Virus record (IMG/VR): IMGVR_UViG_3300028388_003025 | Span: 1-64,000 of that record | Source of the DNA: a virus | DNA: 64,000 nucleotides | Strand: one strand, 5' to 3' | Shown here: positions 7,696 to 34,455 of the stretch, one piece after another | Numbering within the stretch: position 1 is the first letter of the stretch | Layout of the letters: every line of letters begins with the position of its first letter | Translations under genes and position numbers: made by a program | Notes under the pieces: model-generated | What the model was told of the DNA's origin: nothing | Database searches by the model: none | Seen by the model: the letters and a program-made list of their open reading frames with translations, nothing else

Positions 7696-8033
7696 CCTGT
7701 ATGAGCTTTCTCACGGCTTCTTGCCCTCAACATTTTCATATAGTGTTTATTGCACAATCCTTTTGCATGATGAACATTGTTACACCGAGGCACACCACAA
7801 ATATCATGCTTTCGATTTTTCTTTCCGTTTTGATGGATCTTTGCATGTTTTTGATGAGTTAGAACAATTAGATTTTCAATTCTATTGTCATCCCTTATTC
7901 CGTTAATGTGATGAATTGACTCGTGCTTACCTAATTTGCGACCTAGGTGCTTTTCCATAATTAAACGATGTTCATATTCCCACCGCCTAATTTTATTATT
8001 CCAAACTCTATTGTATCCTTTGTATTGTGGCAT
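7692..8033 (-). CDS. HNH endonuclease with C-terminal Cys/His zinc-binding segment
   Basis: EHRLIME...[16 protein letters not shown]...H; CGVPRC...GLCNKHY. Confidence 0.9.
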
Positions 8034-8220: not shown

Positions 8221-8433
8221 TTACTCTTGACCTCTCATGATCTCAAACCATTCCTTATCGATAGAGTCTAGGTTGTTTGCCTCAAATGTTTTGAGGATGT
8301 AATCCCAAACGCCCTTCTCGGCCTTGTTTATCTCAGTAACCATGGCCTCTGCGTAGCATTCGATGGAATCTTTTACGCCTGGGATAGGCTTGTTGGCGTC
8401 GAGTAATATCTTTATAGCTTGATGTATGTCCAT
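8221..8433 (-). CDS. Hypothetical protein
   Basis: ORF track; abutting neighbours. Confidence 0.6.
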   Translation of the reverse strand: MDIHQAIKILLDANKPIPGVKDSIECYAEAMVTEINKAEKGVWDYILKTFEANNLDSIDKEWFEIMRGQE

Positions 8434-8775
8434 TTATTCTTTCCCATCTTCAATGTCTTTAATTAAATCTGTTAAAGCTGAGACAGCTCGTTGTCCTGGC
8501 ACTAACTCTTCGAGTGGTGTGCCATCAGCATAATGTTTAATAGCTTTGTGTACTGCCTCATACGCTCTGTTATATACATCGGTATGCTTTGCGCCAGTTA
8601 ATCCAACCCTGTTAAGTGCAGTGTTAACGTTATACATGAATGGTTCGACTCTTTCGTCGCCTGACCACCATGACTTTGGTGGGTTAACTATTTCTTTGCT
8701 GTCCATTACGCGCTCCTTTTTTATTATCTCTCTATCTATTGTCGTAATCCTTATCCCATAAATTTGTGAAATCAA
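8434..8775 (-). CDS. Hypothetical protein
   Basis: ORF track; probable start MDSKEIV after AAGGAG. Confidence 0.65.
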   Translation of the reverse strand: MISQIYGIRITTIDREIIKKERVMDSKEIVNPPKSWWSGDERVEPFMYNVNTALNRVGLTGAKHTDVYNRAYEAVHKAIKHYADGTPLEELVPGQRAVSALTDLIKDIEDGKE

Positions 8776-9118
8776 AGTGCATGATGTCGCCCTTGCATAT
8801 GCCTAGACTCGCGCCGGACTGTACCATTATCTCTCGATAGCTTTTGCTACTACTAGTAGCTATTATGAATGCGGTTGTTATATATTTTGTATATTTAATT
8901 AGCACGTCAAGACCTGTGGACTTACCGCCAAGGTTACAGTCTAACAGTATCAGATCGTAAGTGTGATTTATAATTTGGTTGATTGTTTCTACATATGTTA
9001 AAGCTGTATCAATGTTCTTGAAGCCCTGTTGGGTGAGATACATCTCCAGTAACATATTAATAGGTCCATCATCCTCAACGATTAAAACTCTCTTGTCTGC
9101 AAGTATCTTTGTGTTCAT
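8732..9118 (-). CDS. Single-domain response regulator receiver (CheY-like)
   Basis: VLIVEDD, YDLILLD (phospho-Asp), GLDVL, IIATS, conserved Lys in GICK. Confidence 0.9.
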   Translation of the reverse strand: MNTKILADKRVLIVEDDGPINMLLEMYLTQQGFKNIDTALTYVETINQIINHTYDLILLDCNLGGKSTGLDVLIKYTKYITTAFIIATSSSKSYREIMVQSGASLGICKGDIMHFDFTNLWDKDYDNR

Positions 9119-11308: not shown

Positions 11309-11403
11309 TTGTCTAACTCCTTATGTTTTATTTACATAACCCATATTTACATGCGGGCTTGTCGCCCTCTTTTCGTTAAGTGCGAGGCGAAGCCGAGCCT
11401 TCT

Positions 11404-11505
11404 CTATGACTCAGTCAACGCATCGTAACAATCTGCTATGTCTACATAGCTATTCTCGATAGACAATTCTTCGTACTTATCTATCAACTTCTCTGTAAGT
11501 GTCAT
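11404..11505 (-). CDS. Small hypothetical protein (33 aa)
   Basis: AAGGAGGTG RBS then ATG ACA CTT... Confidence 0.5.
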   Translation of the reverse strand: MTLTEKLIDKYEELSIENSYVDIADCYDALTES

Positions 11506-11536
11506 GATTGCTCACCTCCTTTCTTTTCGCTCGCTT

Positions 11537-11691
11537 ATCAACATCACTGCTCAGCAACTGCACGGACAAGTCAAGGCCGAGTCGATGCTCTGCAGCGACG
11601 AGCTCTGTATAGCCTTGACCCGTGCTACAATTAAGCGGTGATGATGATGAGATATATCCTAGTAATCACCACTAACTAGTGTGGTGATTAC
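11537..11691. other. Long imperfect hairpin plus adjacent perfect 11-bp hairpin
   Basis: CATCACTGC/GCGGTGATG, GCACGG/CCGTGC, GTCAAGGC/GCCTTGAC nested stems; GTAATCACCAC/GTGGTGATTAC at 11662-11691. Confidence 0.8.
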
Positions 11692-11712
11692 GCCGTGAGT
11701 GTTCGAGAATGT

Positions 11713-11836
11713 AATGCAATGACTCTTGTATGACTACTCCAAGACTCTGCCTGGACTGACTTTAATGCAATGCAATGACTAGCTTTAATGCAATGCAATG
11801 ACTCTTGTATGACTACTCCAAGACTCTGCCTGGACT
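11713..11836. repeat. 45-bp perfect direct repeat (11713-11757, 11792-11836) with an interleaved 21-bp repeat
   Basis: AATGCAATGACTCTTGTATGACTACTCCAAGACTCTGCCTGGACT x2; CTTTAATGCAATGCAATGACT x2. Confidence 0.95.
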
Positions 11837-11991
11837 CTGCGAGGACTGAAGGCGTAAGCCTGAAGTCCGAGCGTTGTTTAAAATTGAACACCGGCAAGTA
11901 TAGGTTAACACTGAACATGAATTATTATGCATAGCCGATCGTCTCTCAAAAAGTTTCTGAGAGCGCATAACCACTATATACTTGCATGTAG

Positions 11992-12320
11992 TTATCTATA
12001 CGTATGGATAGATAAGTAATAAAATAAAATAAAAGATCAGATATTGGGTTTTTTCAGGTTTTTGATGTTGTTAATGCATAATTATTCAAGAGAATAATTG
12101 GCCTAGATTCCTGTAAATCTGATCACTGACATGAATAAATTATTCATTCGTGAAAAATAGCATTTTTTGTGGTCGATTGTTGCATATGGTCTACTGTTCA
12201 ATACTGCACAGCGGAGTCTAGTTATCCACAAAAAAATTAAATCGATATGCCAAGAAAACAATTATCTATCCACGCGTGTAAATAATTTTTCCTGATTTAT
12301 CCATACGCGTGACTGGATAA
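11992..12320. promoter_or_regulatory. Cluster of DnaA-box-like 9-mers (candidate origin)
   Basis: Perfect TTATCCACA at 12222-12230; variants at 11992, 12003(-), 12266, 12297, 12312(-). Confidence 0.5.
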
Positions 12321-12571
12321 ATTGGGGATTTCCACTGCACGTTTTATCAGTGGTTGGTAATATTCAAATAAATATGCCAAGGTTAATCTATACTGTACAG
12401 CATAAGTCAATGCGAATGCATAGAATATTCATTTAAAGTGCACTGAACATTGGGAAAGTTTGTAAACATTCTTGGCATTTAAATTGCATTTATTTATTGT
12501 AGATGCAAGGGGGAGTCTAGGCGGAGTCGAAGCATGTGCACTGAGGGGGTGCTGGGCATATGCAGGGACTT

Positions 12572-12661
12572 GGCAGTGGCAAGGCGGCGCAGCTGCCGAG
12601 CCCTGCCTCGCATACGCCGTGACTCAGGCAGTGCCAAGGCGGCGCAGCTGCCGAGGCCTGC
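12572..12661 (+). repeat. Duplicated GC-rich hairpin with compensatory change
   Basis: GCAGTGGCAAGGCGGCGCAGCTGCCGAGCCCTGC and GCAGTGCCAAGGCGGCGCAGCTGCCGAGGCCTGC. Confidence 0.9.
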
Positions 12662-12745
12662 AGACAAACACCAAAGAGCTTACGCCGTGACATTCCATGA
12701 GCAGAGCCCTAGAAAGTTCCAGGACTCTGCCGAGCAATGCCTGGC

Positions 12746-12964
12746 CTAGTCTTGCGACTCGCCAGTGCTGATGAAGTCAAGCTTCTGCTGGTCTGCTATG
12801 AATGACATTGCTGCCTGCTGCTTTGGTCTGCGCCCTTTGTTTGTAAAGATGGCGCTTAGTGCTGCAGGAGTGATGCCTAGTTCATTAGCTGTCCTATAGA
12901 AGTAATCCTTGTACTTCTTTTTGTTTGCTTCCAATAGCTTGTAAGCTTTTACTTTAAGTGACAT
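12746..12964 (-). CDS. Small putative HTH DNA-binding protein
   Basis: RTANELGITPAALSAIF HTH-like segment; AGGAGGTG RBS before ATG 12964. Confidence 0.65.
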   Translation of the reverse strand: MSLKVKAYKLLEANKKKYKDYFYRTANELGITPAALSAIFTNKGRRPKQQAAMSFIADQQKLDFISTGESQD

Positions 12965-12997
12965 AGTGTTCACCTCCTTTCTTTGCTGAGTCTTGGC

Positions 12998-13159
12998 CTA
13001 ATCTTCCCACTCGAGGTTCATGCCTTTGATTTGGCATTGAGTGTTTGGATCTGGCTTACGTACATGCTTCTTTGTAGTCTTGAAGTAGACTGTGTTGCCT
13101 TCGCGTTGCACTTCCACAATTACGTTGTCATCCTGAGATACATATGTAATATTTCCCAC
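12998..13159 (-). CDS. Small hypothetical protein (53 aa)
   Basis: AGGAGGTG RBS, GTG start, manual translation. Confidence 0.55.
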   Translation of the reverse strand: MGNITYVSQDDNVIVEVQREGNTVYFKTTKKHVRKPDPNTQCQIKGMNLEWED

Positions 13160-13504
13160 GTTAATCACCTCCTTTCTTATTTAGTATTAGTTAACGCATT
13201 TCCTCTCTTTATTTACTCATCACTTTGCTAGCCAATGGATCGGATCGGCGGTCTTGTATGAGTTCTGAACAGGCAATATCATCTAGTGCATCAGCGAAAC
13301 AAATTTATCCGGTTCTACAAAGGGTCTAATCTTACGCTCTTTAATCCGACGTTCAGACGGCACTAGGCCTATTTTGAAATCATGTGCGTGTGTGTTGTGT
13401 TAGTAGGTTGGTGGTTGGTGTGTTGTATTAGTATATGGTTTAGTTATATATAGTTTTAGTATATATAGTTTAGTAATATATATTTATATATATAGTTATA
13501 TATA

Positions 13505-13560
13505 TAGTTAGTAGTTAGTAGTTAGTAGTTAGTAGTTAGTAGTTAGTAGTTAGTAGTAAG
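13505..13560. repeat. (TAGTTAG)7 tandem repeat inside a C-free tract
   Basis: 7 perfect copies 13505-13553 plus degenerate TAGTAAG. Confidence 0.95.
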
Positions 13561-13724
13561 AGATGAGAGGAGAGTTTATATATAGTTAGTTTTTAGAACT
13601 TAGTATATATATTTTTTTTATATATTTTAGTATATACTTAGAGGGGGGTTAGTATATAGTATAATATATAAGGACTTAGATAGAGTATAAATTAAATTAA
13701 TTTTTAAATTAAAATAATAAATAC

Positions 13725-13938
<214 letters not shown>

Positions 13939-14151
13939 GTGGTTTCACCACCTTTCTTTTTAAGAGTATATAATATGATGACATGTCTACGACCCCCCGT
14001 CAGGCCGGTACACATATAATACATATATAAGTACATATACCTGTAAAAATACTTTTTGACCCTACTTTTTACAACTATGGAAATTTTCCACTGGCGTTGA
14101 CGGTGAGTTATTGCGGGTGTATCATTTTCTTGGAAGACAGGAGCGCCCAAT

Positions 14152-15366
14152 ATGAATATAATAACAAAGACAAGCGAAACAGAGCTAGCAGGTTTCTCAA
14201 TGGTGTATTACGGATCAGCGCTTAATGAGCATGCACCATGCCAGGGCATGGCTACAGGCACACGCGGTCTGGCACATCTATTCGAACACATGGGCGTCAA
14301 CCAGTATAAACATTTGTTTGCAGAGATGGAATCTCGCGGCATATACTTCAATGCATCTACATATGATTATAAGATAGTCTTCTATATTCACGGCCTTGTT
14401 GATGACATATTGGAAATTGCACCACAAATCTGTAAACTTATTCTGTCTCCACTATCTGCAGACAAGGGACGCTTCGAGGCAGAGCGCTCTGTAGTTATCC
14501 AGGAATATAAAGATAAGTTTATTAATCCGCGTACAGCAAACATAAACAACTTCGAGCGAAAGTTTCTAAAATATTATGGAGCAATAGGTGCTCTTGAAGA
14601 TTTGCAAAATTTCCCGTACGAGGATGCAGCTGGGCATTATGAGCATCTATTCCATTCTCCTGACGAAATCATAATCGTCGCACCACCAGGAATACATGAG
14701 TCTACATACTCTGACCAAATCATTGAATCAATCGCCCCATTCCTTGGGGATGTATCTGTTGGACCCGAGTTTATGACAACTGACCAGAGATATGACAAGA
14801 TGCTTACGCCAACTTATAACCCGAAAGGATATGCGAGCGAGCCGCTGGAATCTTCTCATTCCCTAGATAAAACTCCAATAATATACTCTTGGCCATTGAT
14901 ACCTGCAGAAGATGCACCAGCTGTTGTGTTTCTTGCAGAGTTGTTTGGTGGATCACTAGAATCACCAATATATAAAGAGGTTCGAGAAAAACGCGGCTTG
15001 GCTTATTTCTGTGCCGCTTACGTAAACCCATATGGATCAAAGGCAATGTTCATGATCGATACCATGACATCGCCTGATAATCATGAAGAGATGAATATCG
15101 CAATCCGTGAAGCTTTCGATAATGCTGAACAGAAGATCTATGACCGCTTTGATCAAACAATTAACTATGTAAAAAAATGTCGCCGAAAGCAAGAGATTAA
15201 CTCATATGAATCCCTAATGACATCAACTCCAATGTATAGCGCATATGAAGCCGTAGAGGCAGGGATAGACAGAGAGACTGCAGTCTATATCTTTATGAAG
15301 TATATGCACCCGTCATTAGCCATGGTTACGCATAATAGTGTAAGTCAGGGATATCTTTCCACTTGA
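14152..15366 (+). CDS. M16 family (insulinase-like) zinc peptidase
   Basis: GLAHLFEH (HxxEH), FNAST, ERSVVIQE, EVREKRGLAY. Confidence 0.9.
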   Translation: MNIITKTSETELAGFSMVYYGSALNEHAPCQGMATGTRGLAHLFEHMGVNQYKHLFAEMESRGIYFNASTYDYKIVFYIHGLVDDILEIAPQICKLILSPLSADKGRFEAERSVVIQEYKDKFINPRTANINNFERKFLKYYGAIGALEDLQNFPYEDAAGHYEHLFHSPDEIIIVAPPGIHESTYSDQIIESIAPFLGDVSVGPEFMTTDQRYDKMLTPTYNPKGYASEPLESSHSLDKTPIIYSWPLIPAEDAPAVVFLAELFGGSLESPIYKEVREKRGLAYFCAAYVNPYGSKAMFMIDTMTSPDNHEEMNIAIREAFDNAEQKIYDRFDQTINYVKKCRRKQEINSYESLMTSTPMYSAYEAVEAGIDRETAVYIFMKYMHPSLAMVTHNSVSQGYLST

Positions 15367-15398
15367 ATTCAAAAACTCGTACATGCTAGAATGCACAC

Positions 15399-15938
15399 AT
15401 GTTAAACCCTTGGTTAATAGCACCATTAATTCTCGGCTACGGCACGGCGGCTGCATGGCTGCTGCGACTTTTTAAACCGACAACTAAACTGAATCACCTC
15501 GGCAATCTTTCAACAGGATTTTCTGTAGCATTTGGCGAGGAGCTAATCTTTAGATATGGAATCATGCATTTATTTCTAATAAACTATATTGGCCTTGATC
15601 CAAACATTGCATTGATAACTAGCGCGTCAATCTTCAGCATACTCCACTTTCTTGCAGGCATGTACCGCAATGGTATTGAATATGATACGGACATAGAATT
15701 TATCATGATAGCTATAGGATTGTTTCTATTAGGCTGTGTGACCGGTAAGTACTTCTTAACATCAGGCAATATAATAAATGGAATGATATTTCACGCAATG
15801 GCTATCTTTGCTGTACAAACGTTGACTGGCATCATGAACAATGAGGGTGCGGCTAACAAATGGATAATTGACAATGGTCATCAATTCATTCGCCTTCCAT
15901 ACGCTTGGGCGATAATGATTCTTTTCCTAATCAAGTAA
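15399..15938 (+). CDS. CPBP (CAAX protease/Abi family) intramembrane metalloprotease
   Basis: EELIFR, FSILH, FHA motifs with several TM helices. Confidence 0.85.
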   Translation: MLNPWLIAPLILGYGTAAAWLLRLFKPTTKLNHLGNLSTGFSVAFGEELIFRYGIMHLFLINYIGLDPNIALITSASIFSILHFLAGMYRNGIEYDTDIEFIMIAIGLFLLGCVTGKYFLTSGNIINGMIFHAMAIFAVQTLTGIMNNEGAANKWIIDNGHQFIRLPYAWAIMILFLIK

Positions 15939-16286
15939 ATGAGTATCAAAAAGATAACAAGAGAGTTATTAAAGGGCAAGAAGTGGCTACCAGTAACTTA
16001 CTCAACAATATATGGAATGTTAATACCAATTGCTAAGAAGCATGGCTACGCATTGGCATTGCATGGCTCTATGGTTCGAGACCTAGATCTTGTCGCAGTT
16101 CCTTGGACCGCGAAAGCAAGTAGTCATAGAAAGTTAATTGGATCAATAAAGAAAGCAATCGGATCGCCACAGACGATAAAGAATATATTAGACGATGTTG
16201 GCATCAAGCCACATGGCCGCAAGGCGTATACAATACTTAGTGGCGATAACACTTGGATTGACTTAAGCATCACATCCCTTATATAA
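15939..16286 (+). CDS. Small nucleotidyltransferase-fold-like phage protein
   Basis: ALHGSMVRDLDLVAVPW (GS...DxD) and later IDLS. Confidence 0.6.
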   Translation: MSIKKITRELLKGKKWLPVTYSTIYGMLIPIAKKHGYALALHGSMVRDLDLVAVPWTAKASSHRKLIGSIKKAIGSPQTIKNILDDVGIKPHGRKAYTILSGDNTWIDLSITSLI

Positions 16287-16303
16287 TATTCATGCTCGCA
16301 AGC

Positions 16304-16330
16304 ACGAACGAACGAAACGAACGAAACGAA
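16304..16330 (+). repeat. Short ACGA(A) tandem repeat
   Basis: ACGAACGAACGAAACGAACGAAACGAA. Confidence 0.8.
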
Positions 16331-16347
16331 AGAAGGAAGTGATTTGA

Positions 16348-16770
16348 ATGAAGGATAAAACGTCTAAAGACGAGTTTGATTCCACGCTCAAGAAGGTAGC
16401 CAAGCAAACGTTTGATACCTCAGCAGTTTGGGAGATGCTCGCAGATCTCAAGTATTACGCAAAGGATATGTTAGAAGGCAAGGGCATGTCCTCGAAGAGT
16501 CCATTACTATTCAGTCTTAATGTCATAAAGCCATCCAGGCGAGAGCTTGACAAGATTCTCATAGATGAGAATGGTAATTATCGCGAAACAATACGCGGAG
16601 AGCAGATAGCCTCTGTGTATCATTACTTAGAGCACTCGGCAAGAGAATTCTCTAATTATGTACACAGCAAGGAAGAAGATGCAGAATATTTCTACACACA
16701 TGTAATGTCATTCATATGGAGAGCCATGAATCGAATTGATGAGAATGTAGTGTTCTGCGCCGCATGTTAA
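16348..16770 (+). CDS. Hypothetical protein
   Basis: ORF track; AAGGA RBS. Confidence 0.75.
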   Translation: MKDKTSKDEFDSTLKKVAKQTFDTSAVWEMLADLKYYAKDMLEGKGMSSKSPLLFSLNVIKPSRRELDKILIDENGNYRETIRGEQIASVYHYLEHSAREFSNYVHSKEEDAEYFYTHVMSFIWRAMNRIDENVVFCAAC

Positions 16771-16798
16771 TTAATTAGCCTGGTGTTTGCGAGCACCA

Positions 16799-16826
16799 TT
16801 GACAATTTAATTCATTAGTATATAAT
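16799..16826 (+). promoter_or_regulatory. Sigma70-type promoter
   Basis: TTGACA-N16-TATAAT. Confidence 0.75.
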
Positions 16827-16832
16827 ACATTC

Positions 16833-17135
16833 CGCAAAGTAAATGTTTGGTGGCCGAATAATGTGCTACGCAGGCATAAGGCACAGTTATTGATGGAGGT
16901 AACAATCCATTACCCAACGTCAAGTGATGAGGGAGAGGTAGCTGGTTCCCGCCCGTAGAAATCAACATGGACAGGACAGTCTTGCAAAATGATAACTACT
17001 GCGGAAGGGCGATAAGTTGAAAGACTAGGTTTAGGTGTTTGCTGGACTTGAGCAATTGTATTGTGGGAAGCCATGATACAGCCAGGCTTGAAAGGCGGCA
17101 TGTAGATATTTCTTTCCCTAACATTTACTTTGTTT
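16833..17135 (+). ncRNA. Candidate ~300-nt structured ncRNA, family unknown
   Basis: 13-bp closing stem 16835-16847/17120-17132, nested helices, begins just after a consensus promoter, no + strand ORF in track. Confidence 0.65.
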
Positions 17136-17211
17136 CTTAATATTCATGCTACTATATATAGAGTGATTAATAATGCTTGACTCTATGACTTCTTTTGCAT
17201 AAAATATTCAT

Positions 17212-17514
17212 ATGGTTAATCAAATAAATGAGACACCTCTACAACTAGTGTTAAGAACAGCAACTAACGCTATTGCAACTAAAGACAAGACCTTAATGCC
17301 GGAATGGGATGAGATCTTAGCAATTGAGTTAATGACTGCAGATAGCAGAATGGAAATGCCGATGGTCCTTGATTATGTTAACCGAGGCTTAATAGGCAGG
17401 TTCTTTAAAGCATTCTGTCCTACATTATTAGAATACGTATTAGAGAAGGCTGTTAGCATGTATGGCATGCAGCCGAAGGGAGAAGAGGATGCCAGTCCAG
17501 AAGAGAAAGAATAA
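17212..17514 (+). CDS. Hypothetical protein (leaderless)
   Basis: TTGACT-N17-TAAAAT-N6-ATG. Confidence 0.75.
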   Translation: MVNQINETPLQLVLRTATNAIATKDKTLMPEWDEILAIELMTADSRMEMPMVLDYVNRGLIGRFFKAFCPTLLEYVLEKAVSMYGMQPKGEEDASPEEKE

Positions 17515-18199
17515 ATCAGTCGGCGATGGAGTCCGCGCAGAGTCAAGGCGTCAGCTATTGAGCTTAGCGCTGCATCTTGCAGGGAAGCGATTCGGACCTG
17601 ACTTAAAGAGTTCATTAGCAGTTCACAAGTGTGGAATGAAATATTTTCTAGACAACGTTGCATTTCCATATGTAGTCTCTGCTTTATTGAAGGGAGACTT
17701 CCCTGACGACATGTTAAAGTATTTAGTTGATCCTGTAGACCCTAACACTGGAACGCATATTATTGACAAGGTTCAAGAAGATGCGCGTATAGTTAAGGTT
17801 GATTCTACTACTGGCGAGGTACAAGGTAGTGCAGAGCTAGACATGGCGATGGATACTGTCGAGACTGCAATGATAGATAGCGCATTAGAGTCTGACCTTA
17901 AAGATGTCACAGTTAATGACACTAAGCAAGATATTGATATGGTCGAGTCTGAAGAAGACTCTATTACTAAAATAGATGAGGATCTTTCAGAACAACTCGG
18001 ACCACTTCCCGAACTGGAAGAAAAAGGGCAGGGGCTCCCCCCAGCATCTGCCCCTCCTCTCAAAGCTGAGGAGTATATTGAGGATGATGAAGAGATTGAT
18101 AATGTATTAAACAATCTTGATGTGTCGGGGATACCTGAGACACCTGAAGAAGCAGTCACCTCTACTTACAGCGTAGAGGAATTAAAAGGATTTGTCTAA
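17489..18199 (+). CDS. Hypothetical protein with acidic C-terminal half
   Basis: ORF 17462..18199; probable start MPVQK. Confidence 0.75.
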   Translation: MPVQKRKNKSVGDGVRAESRRQLLSLALHLAGKRFGPDLKSSLAVHKCGMKYFLDNVAFPYVVSALLKGDFPDDMLKYLVDPVDPNTGTHIIDKVQEDARIVKVDSTTGEVQGSAELDMAMDTVETAMIDSALESDLKDVTVNDTKQDIDMVESEEDSITKIDEDLSEQLGPLPELEEKGQGLPPASAPPLKAEEYIEDDEEIDNVLNNLDVSGIPETPEEAVTSTYSVEELKGFV

Positions 18200-19764: not shown

Positions 19765-21546
19765 ATGGTTTTAGAAGTAGACAATTATAAGCTAGAGTAC
19801 GAGGGAAATAAACTTTATCTCCCTCTTACCGACTTATTAAAGAACGAACCTCACCAGACGGAGCCATATCATCCTCAAGGTATATATATAAGAAACAAGA
19901 TGGTCAGGAAGATAACTGACCGTACCGATCTTGACCAGGCGGGCAAAGATTCCCTATTAAGGAAGTTAGACAAGCGAGTATTTACATACGACCACTTCAG
20001 GACAGACACTGGCGAACGGATGGAGCTTCGACCTTATCAGGTAGGGCTAGCAAATACATGGGCACCTAACATAGCGAACCAATCAAGTCGATCAGTAGGT
20101 AAATCAACTTTAATCGAAGTTGAGGCACTATGGGGCGCGGAAGTATTCCCGGGGTTCCAGACATTGATAGCAACTCAGGGTGAGTCGCAGCTATATCCTA
20201 TTATGGAGCGTATTATATATAGAATAAACAATGATCCATACTTAAAGTCTCAATTGGCAAAGAAGCCGGTACGTAATCCTAAGTATCACATAGTATTCAA
20301 GAACGGTCACCAGATATGGGGATCTATCGCTGGGCCAGACGGAACAAACTTTAACGGGCTTCATGTTCACAGGATATTGGTTGATGAATCGCAGATCATG
20401 ACGAAGAAGGCATGGACTGAGTTATGGCGTTGTCGAAACATGGGATCGTTAACTTCAATTAGAATTATGGGCGTGCCTAACGGATTACGGGACAGAAAGT
20501 TCTTTGACCTTACTAACGACCGCAAACATTGGGAGTGGTTTCATTTTACTCAGTGCATGTTACCTGAATCTAACTTCAATGAAGTAATTAGTGGTGCGAA
20601 GGAATATTCCGACATCGGCTACCCTGACTTTAACAATCCTGATTTCCTTCAGCAGTTTCTTGGATTGCATGCGGTACCTAGTAGAACTGGTATTGATTTC
20701 GATGCATACCTTAAAACAATAAAAGAATATGCTTTCTATCAGATCATTGATATACCTAGGTCAGTATTCCCAGAGATCATAACTGAAGACCCAGAACCGA
20801 TTGCAAGATCGTTCATGGACTTTGCTGGCGATCAGGTAAAGGAGATCGACCATTTTATTAAAGACGAAGGGGTTAGCAAGATATTTGCTGGGGCTGACCT
20901 TGGTTATGCATCCGACCCTACAGAAGTAGTATTATTTTACGAAGACCCTGCTAATAACAATAAGTTAACTGCGATGTGTAGATTCCACTTCGAACGTATT
21001 GATTATCCAATCCAGTGTGCATTACTAGAATTTTTATTCAATCGCTACCCGATAGTTCGAATGGGCATCGACCTTGGTAACAATGGTCTTGCTGTCCATC
21101 AATTCATGATGGCTAAGTCGTCAAAGTATTCCGAGCGGCTGCGAGGCTTCTTCGCCAACCAGAAGATACTAGTTGGGTACACTGCCGACGATCATGAACA
21201 GATAAGGCAGATGAAAGAGTTTACTACATCAAAGATAAACTCACTTTGCATATCTGATTCAATTACATACAAGCGAGACAAGTTCCGTACCGATCAATAC
21301 TCTAATGTAGTATATAGAATAACATCTGCAGGTAACACTGTATTTCCAAAGGGTAATGATCACATCCTTGATGCCGACAGGTGTATGGTAGCGGCATGGC
21401 ACTTATATAGAGAACGCTTAGAAGAGGGTGGTGGTGAAGGAGCGCTTGATCAAAATTTCATTGCATCATTAAAGACGAAGTCACATTTATCTAACAATCC
21501 ATCTGGAAGTAAGATTGCAGGTGTTGGGATATTGCCATCAGTTTAG
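19765..21546 (+). CDS. terL: Terminase large subunit
   Basis: LRPYQ, Walker A SRSVGKS, Walker B ILVDE, nuclease GADLG and DHILDA. Confidence 0.92.
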   Translation: MVLEVDNYKLEYEGNKLYLPLTDLLKNEPHQTEPYHPQGIYIRNKMVRKITDRTDLDQAGKDSLLRKLDKRVFTYDHFRTDTGERMELRPYQVGLANTWAPNIANQSSRSVGKSTLIEVEALWGAEVFPGFQTLIATQGESQLYPIMERIIYRINNDPYLKSQLAKKPVRNPKYHIVFKNGHQIWGSIAGPDGTNFNGLHVHRILVDESQIMTKKAWTELWRCRNMGSLTSIRIMGVPNGLRDRKFFDLTNDRKHWEWFHFTQCMLPESNFNEVISGAKEYSDIGYPDFNNPDFLQQFLGLHAVPSRTGIDFDAYLKTIKEYAFYQIIDIPRSVFPEIITEDPEPIARSFMDFAGDQVKEIDHFIKDEGVSKIFAGADLGYASDPTEVVLFYEDPANNNKLTAMCRFHFERIDYPIQCALLEFLFNRYPIVRMGIDLGNNGLAVHQFMMAKSSKYSERLRGFFANQKILVGYTADDHEQIRQMKEFTTSKINSLCISDSITYKRDKFRTDQYSNVVYRITSAGNTVFPKGNDHILDADRCMVAAWHLYRERLEEGGGEGALDQNFIASLKTKSHLSNNPSGSKIAGVGILPSV

Positions 21547-21590
21547 ATTGAATTGGTGATTGATTTATTATATGATAGAGGGAGCGAAAA

Positions 21591-21797
21591 ATGAATAACA
21601 AGAAAATAAAGCAGAGGCCGGTAACGTCTCCGCCTCCAAAGGAGAATAAAATATTTTTAAGCAAGGCGCAAGCCGAACTTTTAAAATTCATGGAGGAAAA
21701 GCTTTATGGCAAGTTGACTCTAGTAATAGAGAAGGGCGAGCCGAAAAGAATATTGAACGCCGAGTATTCGATAAAACTAAGGAATAGTAGTATATAA
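21591..21797 (+). CDS. Small protein, DUF2292/YezD-like
   Basis: YGKLTLVIEKGEPKRI pattern; GGGAG RBS. Confidence 0.6.
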   Translation: MNNKKIKQRPVTSPPPKENKIFLSKAQAELLKFMEEKLYGKLTLVIEKGEPKRILNAEYSIKLRNSSI

Positions 21798-21798
21798 T

Positions 21799-21963
21799 AT
21801 GGCACAACAAGAAGAGTTAGTATTTATTTCGGACAGGCAGCTTGGCCTATTAAAATTTATTGAAGCCTTCGATGCCGACAGTGGAGCTATCGAAATTAGT
21901 TTTGAGAATGGCGACCCAGTTATAATCTCTATGGCAGAGAAGGAAGAGAAGGTACTTAGTTAA
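21799..21963 (+). CDS. Small paralog of preceding gene (54 aa)
   Basis: Manual translation MAQQEELVFISDRQLGLLKFIE...GAIEISFENGDPVII; TAATG overlap with portal. Confidence 0.65.
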   Translation: MAQQEELVFISDRQLGLLKFIEAFDADSGAIEISFENGDPVIISMAEKEEKVLS

Positions 21964-23636
21964 TGTTTGAAGAAATAAGAAAGACTTTCAAGCCTGGTGG
22001 TTTTAATAATTTTGGGAAGCCCACCAAGGCACCAAACCCTAGACTGCCATATAGCCAAGTAAACAAGAAGCCATCTTTACTGGATAAGATAAAGAAGGTA
22101 AGACCAAAAGAAGTTACTGAACCTGATTATATAGTAGGCAAAGGCAAGATCAATGGCATAAGACCAAAGTCACATGCAACTGACCCTGGCCTTGATGCAT
22201 TAAAACAAAAAGAGACATTATACTTCCCAACCTTCGAAGATAGTATATACACATTAACAAAAGCGAAGGCAAAGCTTTATCGCTTCATGCGAGACACTAT
22301 TCCTGATATTGATGCAGGTATCTGGGCATGGACTAGAATTTGTGACACAAAAAGAAAATTAATTATAAATGGCGGGACTGACATTCAAAAGGCTAAGGCT
22401 CTTGAGATTGTCAACATGTTGGATGAACGTTTATATGAACATGACTTCGTTAAGGCATCTGGTTTTGATTTATTATCAGGCCGTGCATTCATGGATATGT
22501 TCACTACTGGATCATCAGCTGGTGAGGTATGGATTGGCAATGGTGGTAGACAAGTTAACAAATTCCTGACAGTACCACCTGAGAGTATAAGATTTAAAAG
22601 AAAGAACAGAGTTGAAGTTGAAGCGTACCAATATTGGGAGTCTTCAAACAAACTTGCGAAGTTAAATAAGAATACCTTCATATATATGCCACTCAATCTA
22701 GAGAGTGCAGAGCTTTATGGTAAATCAATGTTAACTTCTATTCCATTCGTTTCATTAATACAAAATCAATTAATGAGAGACATGTCTGCAGCAATGCACA
22801 ATGCTGGCTACACAAAGTATCACTATTCAATGACTCCACCTCCAAAGTTGGCTGGCGAGTCAAAGGACGCATACACACAAAGAATCTCTAGCCAGTTCAA
22901 TGAATTCATTATGCAAATGACTAAACTGAATCCAGAAGACAACATTGCTACTTATGACAACATAGACGTAAAGGTTCCTAGCGGAAGCGGTGGCGGTGGC
23001 GGCAGCGCAGTAGTCTGGTATGATTCGTATAAAGCGGTAGAGGAACAGATCATATCTGGGTTAAAGCTTGCGCCATTCATGATTGGTAGAAACTATGACA
23101 CCACCGGCGAATTTGGTACAGCACAGTATGATTTAATTTTAAGAAACGCAACTGCAGTTCAAAGAATAGTTGGAAACATGCTTGCCTGGTTAGCAAACTT
23201 AGAGCTAGCAATGAAAGGTTCTCCATGCCGAGTCCAGATTGAGTATGACAACACTCGTACGGTTGGTGCGCTGTTAGAATCACAAGCTGAGCTAATGAGA
23301 ACAAAAGCTACTATAATAAAGCGTAATGAAGGAATCTTATCTCAGAAAGAAACTGCCGAGGAGTTAGGCTATGATCAATACGATCATGATGGACCTAACC
23401 CTAAATTTATGAACTCGCAAATATCAGTTGACCAAGTGGGAGACACAATGCCTACTAATGGCCAGGCTTCGCTAGACAATATGTCTGAGCAAGAGATATT
23501 AAGATTAACTGATCGTGACATATTGGATATGAATTTAGATGCAAAGACGATTCGTGAGATTAGACTATTCAAAAGAGATGAGGCTAGCAAAAAACATAGA
23601 CACATCGAAGAGACTCACGATATTGATTTTGGCTAA
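21963..23636 (+). CDS. Portal protein
   Basis: Between TerL and protease; size; LYGKSML and IISGLKLAPFMIG portal-like segments. Confidence 0.82.
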   Translation: MFEEIRKTFKPGGFNNFGKPTKAPNPRLPYSQVNKKPSLLDKIKKVRPKEVTEPDYIVGKGKINGIRPKSHATDPGLDALKQKETLYFPTFEDSIYTLTKAKAKLYRFMRDTIPDIDAGIWAWTRICDTKRKLIINGGTDIQKAKALEIVNMLDERLYEHDFVKASGFDLLSGRAFMDMFTTGSSAGEVWIGNGGRQVNKFLTVPPESIRFKRKNRVEVEAYQYWESSNKLAKLNKNTFIYMPLNLESAELYGKSMLTSIPFVSLIQNQLMRDMSAAMHNAGYTKYHYSMTPPPKLAGESKDAYTQRISSQFNEFIMQMTKLNPEDNIATYDNIDVKVPSGSGGGGGSAVVWYDSYKAVEEQIISGLKLAPFMIGRNYDTTGEFGTAQYDLILRNATAVQRIVGNMLAWLANLELAMKGSPCRVQIEYDNTRTVGALLESQAELMRTKATIIKRNEGILSQKETAEELGYDQYDHDGPNPKFMNSQISVDQVGDTMPTNGQASLDNMSEQEILRLTDRDILDMNLDAKTIREIRLFKRDEASKKHRHIEETHDIDFG

Positions 23637-33970: not shown

Positions 33971-34018
33971 ACCCGGCAAGCCTCTTGATAATGCTCAAAT
34001 GTGCCGGGTTTTGTTTTG
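33971..34018 (+). terminator. Terminator-like stem with T tract
   Basis: ACCCGGCA...TGCCGGGT-TTTGTTTTG. Confidence 0.6.
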
Positions 34019-34074: not shown

Positions 34075-34107
34075 TCATTCATATTAAAATACATGGAGGA
34101 ATTACTT

Positions 34108-34455
34108 ATGGCAGAAGAAAAGAAGACAGCAAAGAATCCGGTTATAGAATTACCAATAAGCAAGAAGAAGATAGAGCTACGAATAGCAACTGGTAAGGAC
34201 GAGGTCAAGGCTAACAATGTTAAGCCTATAAAGGCTGGCGATCCAGAATCTTATGTTGCAAATAGACGTGCCTTGCTTTGCTCTACTGTTGTATCTGTTG
34301 ATGGTGAAGCTGTTGCTTTTGTTTCTGATAATCTTGACGAGTTACCGCTTAGAGATAGAGGCGTTCTAGAAACTGCATACCAAGCAATCAATGAAGTAAC
34401 TGAGCAAGACGAATCTGCAGTTAAAGAGGTAGTTAACCCTTTTTTCGGAAAGTAG
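34108..34455 (+). CDS. Tail assembly chaperone (G-like)
   Basis: IELPISKKKIELR..TGKDE, LPLRDR; GGAGG RBS before ATG 34108. Confidence 0.8.
   Translation: MAEEKKTAKNPVIELPISKKKIELRIATGKDEVKANNVKPIKAGDPESYVANRRALLCSTVVSVDGEAVAFVSDNLDELPLRDRGVLETAYQAINEVTEQDESAVKEVVNPFFGK

Follow-up and report, generated by a model that had tools for sequence, protein, structure and literature searches.

The main conclusion of our analysis concerns a gap between genes p140 and p100 of an uncultured phage, in which a consensus promoter, P1, stands immediately ahead of one arm of a long-range helix. The best-supported reading is that P1 is a real, strong promoter, that its product is non-coding over at least 300 nt, and that the 5' end of the transcript can clamp to a segment 285 nt downstream. 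The architecture of promoter plus terminal helix is real and noteworthy. As judged from sequence, the ~300-nt RNA itself is a plausible orphan candidate; it is unproven because no relatives turned up in the collections searched and because its interior folds no better than chance would predict. Coordinates refer to the window, by which we mean the whole 64-kb stretch of DNA analysed. The source is an IMG/VR contig, and its 79 kb amount to 72% of the genome, which would measure ~110 kb if complete.

The stretch 16835–17132 is non-coding. It lies within 441 nt devoid of a credible ORF, between the p140 stop codon (16770) and the p100 start codon (17212), and this gap is the sole large gene-free stretch within a long plus-strand gene block, with which the candidate unit is co-oriented. 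At the end of p140, TAA at 16768, TAA at 16772 and TAG at 16776 provide stops in all three frames inside 11 nt (16768–16778, plus strand), so that translation arriving from upstream stops short of the unit. Each plus-strand frame of the gap contains many stops, with all three codon types present, which rules out an alternative genetic code or a recoded gene. Pfam and PHROG searches with the five small ORFs of the gap (31–63 amino acids) were empty at thresholds as loose as E ≤ 1. What looks like a 417-nt gap separating the genes for the large terminase, TerL, and the portal protein (21547–21962) is coding, not RNA: two small ORFs start in it, at 21592 and at 21800, and L082, the nearest relative, has a comparable small ORF in its own TerL–portal gap (8416–8590).

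P1 (TTGACA-16-TATAAT; 16799–16826, plus strand), to which an earlier sequence-only reading of this DNA had drawn attention, is present as described. It matches the sigma-70 consensus at 12 of 12 positions, is the only such match across the 79-kb record, and is very probably a real, strong promoter. Its start point can be predicted from the phage's own leaderless genes, at least eight of which begin exactly 7 nt past the end of a TAnAAT hexamer. In such starts, the TAnAAT, often TGn-extended, is followed by exactly 6 nt and then ATG, with no Shine–Dalgarno sequence; those listed are at 15399, 17212, 29630, 34914, 45273 and 53704 on the plus strand, and at 8033 on the minus strand. Leaderless starts look systematic in this phage and may hint at the translation habits of its host. 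The same spacing, applied to P1, sets the predicted +1 at 16833/16834 (plus strand; the end of the −10 element plus 7), at the foot of the terminal helix.

A second promoter, P2 (TTGACT-17-TAAAAT; 17177–17205, plus strand), matches the consensus at 10 of 12 positions. Six nucleotides separate its −10 element from the start codon (ATG) of p100 (17212–17514, plus strand), the first packaging-side gene, which has a homolog in L082. The earlier claim that the next gene has a promoter of its own is thereby borne out. Because p100 is leaderless from P2 and lacks a Shine–Dalgarno sequence, P1 transcripts are neither needed nor well suited for its expression, and transcription running on from the stronger P1 would presumably occlude P2. 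The gene p245 (17462) has a usable Shine–Dalgarno sequence and could be read off P1 transcripts.

The helix starts 1–2 nt past the predicted +1. Its 5' arm, CAAAGTAAATGTT (16835–16847, plus strand), and its 3' arm (17120–17132, plus strand) are perfect complements over 13 bp, as the sequence-only reading had claimed, and 14 bp are reached with G16834–U17133, which is followed by C16835–G17132. The mean pair probability is 0.96, and the helix is worth about −15 kcal/mol. It is the position of this helix relative to +1 that is improbable; the mere existence of a 13-bp repeat in the genome is not, as one perfect 13-bp inverted repeat with 100–500 nt spacing is present vs 1.4 expected from Markov shuffles. 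By a post hoc estimate, the coincidence of helix and +1 amounts to ~1.7e-5 per position and ~1e-4 per promoter (start within 4 nt of +1), or to ~1e-3 once ~20 promoters are allowed for. During transcription, the 5' arm is no freer than it is with shuffled interiors.

Directly 3' of the helix lies a U-rich tail, TTTCTTAATATT (17133–17144, plus strand), at which we propose that the RNA would end. The tail passes the U-tract rule of the terminator scan, yet no local hairpin precedes it, and the scan found no canonical terminator between the helix and P2 (the 3' arm is 44 nt upstream of the P2 −35 element), nor anywhere in 16300–17700. Because canonical terminators are scarce across the whole phage, their absence at the unit says little. 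A helix that closes a loop of 272 nt is not an established terminator.

Ornate structure inside the helix is not supported by single-sequence folding statistics. The 303-nt unit has a minimum free energy (MFE) of −95.5 kcal/mol, with a z-score of −3.6 (−3.3 with a separate set of shuffles); nearly all of this folding excess is, in these models, the terminal helix, and the inner 272 nt without it have a z-score of −1.1, with 27 of 200 shuffles folding equally well. Positional entropy (z = −0.8) and ensemble diversity are the same as in shuffles. When 1580 sliding 303-nt windows of the genome were regressed on composition, the unit lay at −2.0 SD (rank 44) on the plus strand and at −1.6 SD on the minus strand. 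The 5' inner domain (16848–17013, plus strand; z = −1.2), whose most stable piece is a hairpin at 16891–16912, folds no better than shuffles. The sole inner part that beats them is the 3' arm at 17014–17119 (z = −2.7; MFE frequency 0.11), with an irregular extended hairpin arm of 98 nt (17019–17116, plus strand) and an 11-bp GAAG-capped tip (17056–17081). Both the MFE and the centroid structures are multibranched.

The nested helices that had been read by eye within the unit (AATAATGTGC/GCACAGTTATT, ATGGA/TCCAT, AGGGAGAG/CTTTCCCT, ACATG/CATGT, AGTCTT/AAGACT and the GAAG-capped hairpin) were all found in their places; they are, however, mostly what shuffled sequence of the same composition yields. 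When enforced as a joint fold, the set lies 13.5 kcal/mol above the MFE. Nested helices listed in this way should be treated with caution, as they contribute little past the terminal helix. The further argument that G-U pairs favour the plus strand does not hold. The plus and minus strands fold at −95.5 vs −74.4 kcal/mol, and composition alone predicts −83.9 vs −65.3 kcal/mol; because composition predicts the 21 kcal/mol strand difference, G-U content (22 of 102 predicted MFE pairs) cannot discriminate between the strands, and the promoter alone singles out the plus strand. Of the original proposal, a novel structured RNA of ~300 nt, the non-coding sequence and the very probably real strong promoter ahead of it are supported; the inner fold is near chance, and no terminator or other defined 3' end was found.

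We found no homolog of the unit by distant blastn against phage and plasmid collections, by nhmmer and blastn at 81 TerL-related loci, or with a single-sequence covariance model (R1), the targets of which were 82 + 80 + 12 loci plus 5 + 135 Hydrogenedentota genomes. Among viral contigs, scans with five patterns, exact or gapped, gave chance matches only, the 3 and 9 matches to two 17-mers lying in unrelated coding sequence, and a sequence index of other genomes contained no similar stretch. The earlier remark that hallmark motifs of tmRNA, RNase P and SRP are missing is in keeping with the absence of any known RNA family: the covariance models of Rfam 15 gave no match on either strand of 16700–17300 even at E ≤ 10. 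At the gathering threshold, the whole window returned an abiF motif at 33972–34009 only, and ARAGORN found no tRNA or tmRNA gene in the window. The abiF motif (RF03085, plus strand) scores 48.3 bits against a gathering score of 37 and lies just 5' of a 120-amino-acid ORF (34093–34455) that has no Pfam family.

Close relatives of TerL are few, with those at 76% (P0002) and 68% (P0004) identity on ~2-kb contigs and one at 53% on a longer contig, L082. Alignments with TerL and p365 likewise identified one related viral contig only, L082/L163. L082 has p100, p365, TerL, portal and protease–ligase genes in common with our phage; it contains nothing that matches 14152–17135, which holds an M16 peptidase, a CPBP protease, p115, p140 and the candidate RNA unit. 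The unit forms the last part of an accessory block missing from the nearest relative, as is the case with morons. Because the flanking genes p140 and p245 are ORFans, they offer no path to further loci.

Several other features of the phage are of note. The accessory block (14152–16770), absent in L082, encodes the M16 peptidase, an intramembrane protease of the CPBP/CAAX type, a Zn-ribbon protein that is widespread among phages (phrog_35913) and the ORFan p140. The region 11309–14151 is divergent, ORF-poor and repeat-rich, with a 50-nt direct repeat at 11708/11787, a 35-nt GC-rich repeat at 12572/12627, and, at 13.4–13.8 kb, both TAGTTAG runs and AT-rich palindromes; at the same relative position, L082 (1845–3100) carries short, perfect palindromic hairpins lined up one after another. 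This region is probably an origin or control region. In the early leftward block, a gene at 8732–9118 (minus strand) encodes a response-regulator receiver domain as a stand-alone protein (PF00072, E = 1.7e-11). The best 80 genome-contig relatives of TerL (19765–21546), at ~30% identity, are mostly in Candidatus Hydrogenedentota MAGs, the remainder carrying Nitrospirales, uncultured bacterium and Armatimonadota labels. The TerL matches suggest a prophage-like element conserved in Hydrogenedentota, or may be a clue to the host.

The explanation that we tentatively favour is that the element is a moron-like transcription unit, autonomous and non-coding, with the end-to-end helix and the U-rich tail closing it. 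We prefer it because p100 has its own leaderless promoter, because P2 would be occluded by polymerase reading through from the stronger P1, and because the element sits in an accessory block that a relative with the same packaging genes lacks. Host sigma-70-type RNA polymerase would initiate at 16833/16834, on the strongest promoter of the phage, and the first 13–14 nt of the transcript would then pair with 17120–17133, thereby closing a domain of ~300 nt within which the 98-nt hairpin arm alone looks designed. The U-rich tail that follows the helix would end the RNA, or mark a trimming site, upstream of P2. An RNA with protected ends would result, acting by itself and most likely through protein binding. 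We infer the transcript itself, along with its 3' end, its stability and any action in trans. Counting against the proposal are the lack of homologs in the collections searched, the chance-like interior, the 22 G-U pairs among the 102 predicted, the chance expectation of a repeat of this size in the genome, the 5' arm being no freer than with shuffled interiors, and the lack of a canonical terminator.

In a bolder form of this proposal, the RNA would be the first member of a new phage RNA family, ~300 nt in length, that is transcribed from the strongest promoter as infection begins and targets a host or phage protein in trans. The end helix and U-tract would double as a 'giant-loop' intrinsic terminator and a clamp against exonucleases. 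We consider this rather unlikely.

The main rival to the moron-like unit is a cis-acting leader of the packaging genes, which we regard as possible though doubtful. P1 and P2 would then be tandem promoters of the packaging and structural genes, and P1 would add an untranslated leader of ~380 nt without making a separate RNA; the long-range pairing of 5' and 3' segments might stabilize the 5' end of the mRNA or constitute a processing or attenuation site. Such a leader would share the direction of the long plus-strand gene block, as the element does, would need neither an elaborate inner fold nor a terminator ahead of P2, and could deliver p245, with its usable Shine–Dalgarno sequence, to ribosomes. 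However, p100 has no such sequence and has its own leaderless promoter, L082 runs p100, p365, TerL and portal without any leader of this kind, and the scarcity of canonical terminators throughout the phage makes the missing terminator a weak argument.

It is less probable still, in our judgement, that the gap is spacer DNA between the accessory block and the packaging genes, holding two promoters together with a repeat and helices that arose by chance, and with no RNA function. A 13-bp repeat is expected ~1.4 times per genome, the interior has a z-score of −1.1 and shuffle-like entropy, the unit lies only 2.0 SD below the genome background, and the portal gene offers an unrelated antisense match of 13 nt at the same blast E of 0.29. 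Against this explanation, the repeat begins 1–2 nt past the +1 of the best promoter, with both arms in one large gap (the ~1e-3 coincidence estimated above), and the 3' arm has a z-score of −2.7. Phages, moreover, seldom retain 440 nt of idle DNA.

The two 13-bp arms might instead work at the DNA level, as protein sites, either operators for looping between P1 and P2 or the repeats of an invertible switch within a 5' leader; we find this improbable. The geometry is suggestive, with a promoter, an inverted repeat, 272 bp, a second inverted repeat and then the next gene, and the left arm covers P1 +2 to +14, a typical location for operators. However, neither tyrosine nor serine recombinases (PF00589, PF00239) were found in the 79 kb (72% of the genome), and the segment contains no promoter or terminator on either strand. 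Nor do the arms belong to an operator family, as copies of the 13-mer at up to two mismatches number 6 vs 3.7 expected, and the phage would gain nothing obvious by switching its packaging genes off.

We give almost no weight to a structural role for the RNA at the packaging motor. A packaging role is unsupported. The nearest relative, L082, carries the same packaging genes without the element. Least credible of all is a gene for a small protein, encoded opposite the unit (17101 to 16910, minus strand), to which the RNA would be antisense: at 63 amino acids it is the longest ORF of the gap and has a weak AGGGAAAG 10 nt upstream of its ATG, but it belongs to no Pfam or PHROG family at E ≤ 1, shares three 5-residue words with none of the proteins in a library of 5.8 billion, has no promoter-like site leading into it on the minus strand, and opposes the direction of the entire gene block.

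Other functional classes were considered and rejected. A group I intron splitting p140 and p100 is contradicted by L082, in which p100 is complete and p140 has no partner, and by the absence of an Rfam intron match. A CsrA-type sponge would be expected to be enriched in GGA motifs, of which there are 7 vs ~6.4 calculated from base composition. For a trans-antisense regulator, the best match is the 13 nt to the portal gene, in which 17082–17094 is perfectly antisense to 21985–21997 (codons 8–12 of the portal mRNA); at a blast E of 0.29 this is at chance level. RNAs of the 6S or Ms1 type need a rod-like fold with a large central bubble, whereas the structures predicted here are multibranched, and there is no Rfam match.

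If the moron-like unit is real, it adds one more accessory non-coding RNA gene to a very poorly known phage lineage, among neighbours that are mostly ORFans, and it provides a case in which transcript ends are set by long-range pairing instead of a hairpin nearby. RNAs of this sort are candidates for roles in host take-over or anti-defence. The present value of this single sequence is that it flags the locus.

Comparison with known systems places the candidate among several arrangements that it resembles in part. In retrons, the msr–msd unit resembles ours in that a1/a2-like inverted repeats, here of 13 bp, flank ~300 nt with its own promoter, but the candidate locus lacks a reverse transcriptase; the PF00078 domain is absent from the 79-kb record (control genomes gave matches), the neighbouring genes encode no reverse transcriptase, transposase or nuclease domain, and a retron was rejected on these grounds. 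Clostridioides difficile cwpV and flgB are precedents for invertible switches. In these and in fimS, inverted repeats flank 100–750 bp between a promoter and a gene, as they do here; unlike them, the candidate is accompanied by no recombinase in the 79 kb and contains no internal promoter or terminator. GOLLD and ROOL RNAs are likewise non-coding and phage-borne, but the candidate is much smaller, has an unremarkable interior, occurs in single copy, and has neither a family nor an Rfam match.

The pRNA of phi29 (RF00044) is also a phage RNA with a strong host-type promoter and paired 5' and 3' ends. It differs in length (174 nt, against ~300 nt for the candidate), and its covariance model gave no match here at E ≤ 10. 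The context differs too. Phi29 has a small protein-primed genome and a gp16-type ATPase in place of a large terminase, whereas our phage has a genome of ~110 kb, a portal and a conventional TerL of 593 amino acids (which matches annotated large terminases weakly), and its relative L082 has the same packaging genes without the RNA.

Leader RNAs provide a further parallel. In T7, the long leader behind promoters A1–A3 is removed by an RNase III cut (R0.3), and phage P4 immunity depends on leader pairings between seqA, seqB and seqC. The T7 leader, P4 CI and the C4 RNA of phages P1 and P7 (Rfam C4 family) share with the candidate a strong promoter, an untranslated stretch of a few hundred nucleotides, and long-range complementarity ahead of an operon; the candidate, unlike them, has no Rfam match, no second target site and no identified processing signal.

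Phage morons, as described by Hendrix and colleagues, are autonomous promoter–gene–terminator inserts in late regions. The candidate differs from them in that its cargo is non-coding and in that a long-range helix with a U-rich tail stands where a canonical terminator would be. Like a moron, it has a strong promoter of its own, is flanked by conserved genes at the border of the structural block, and is missing from the relative L082.
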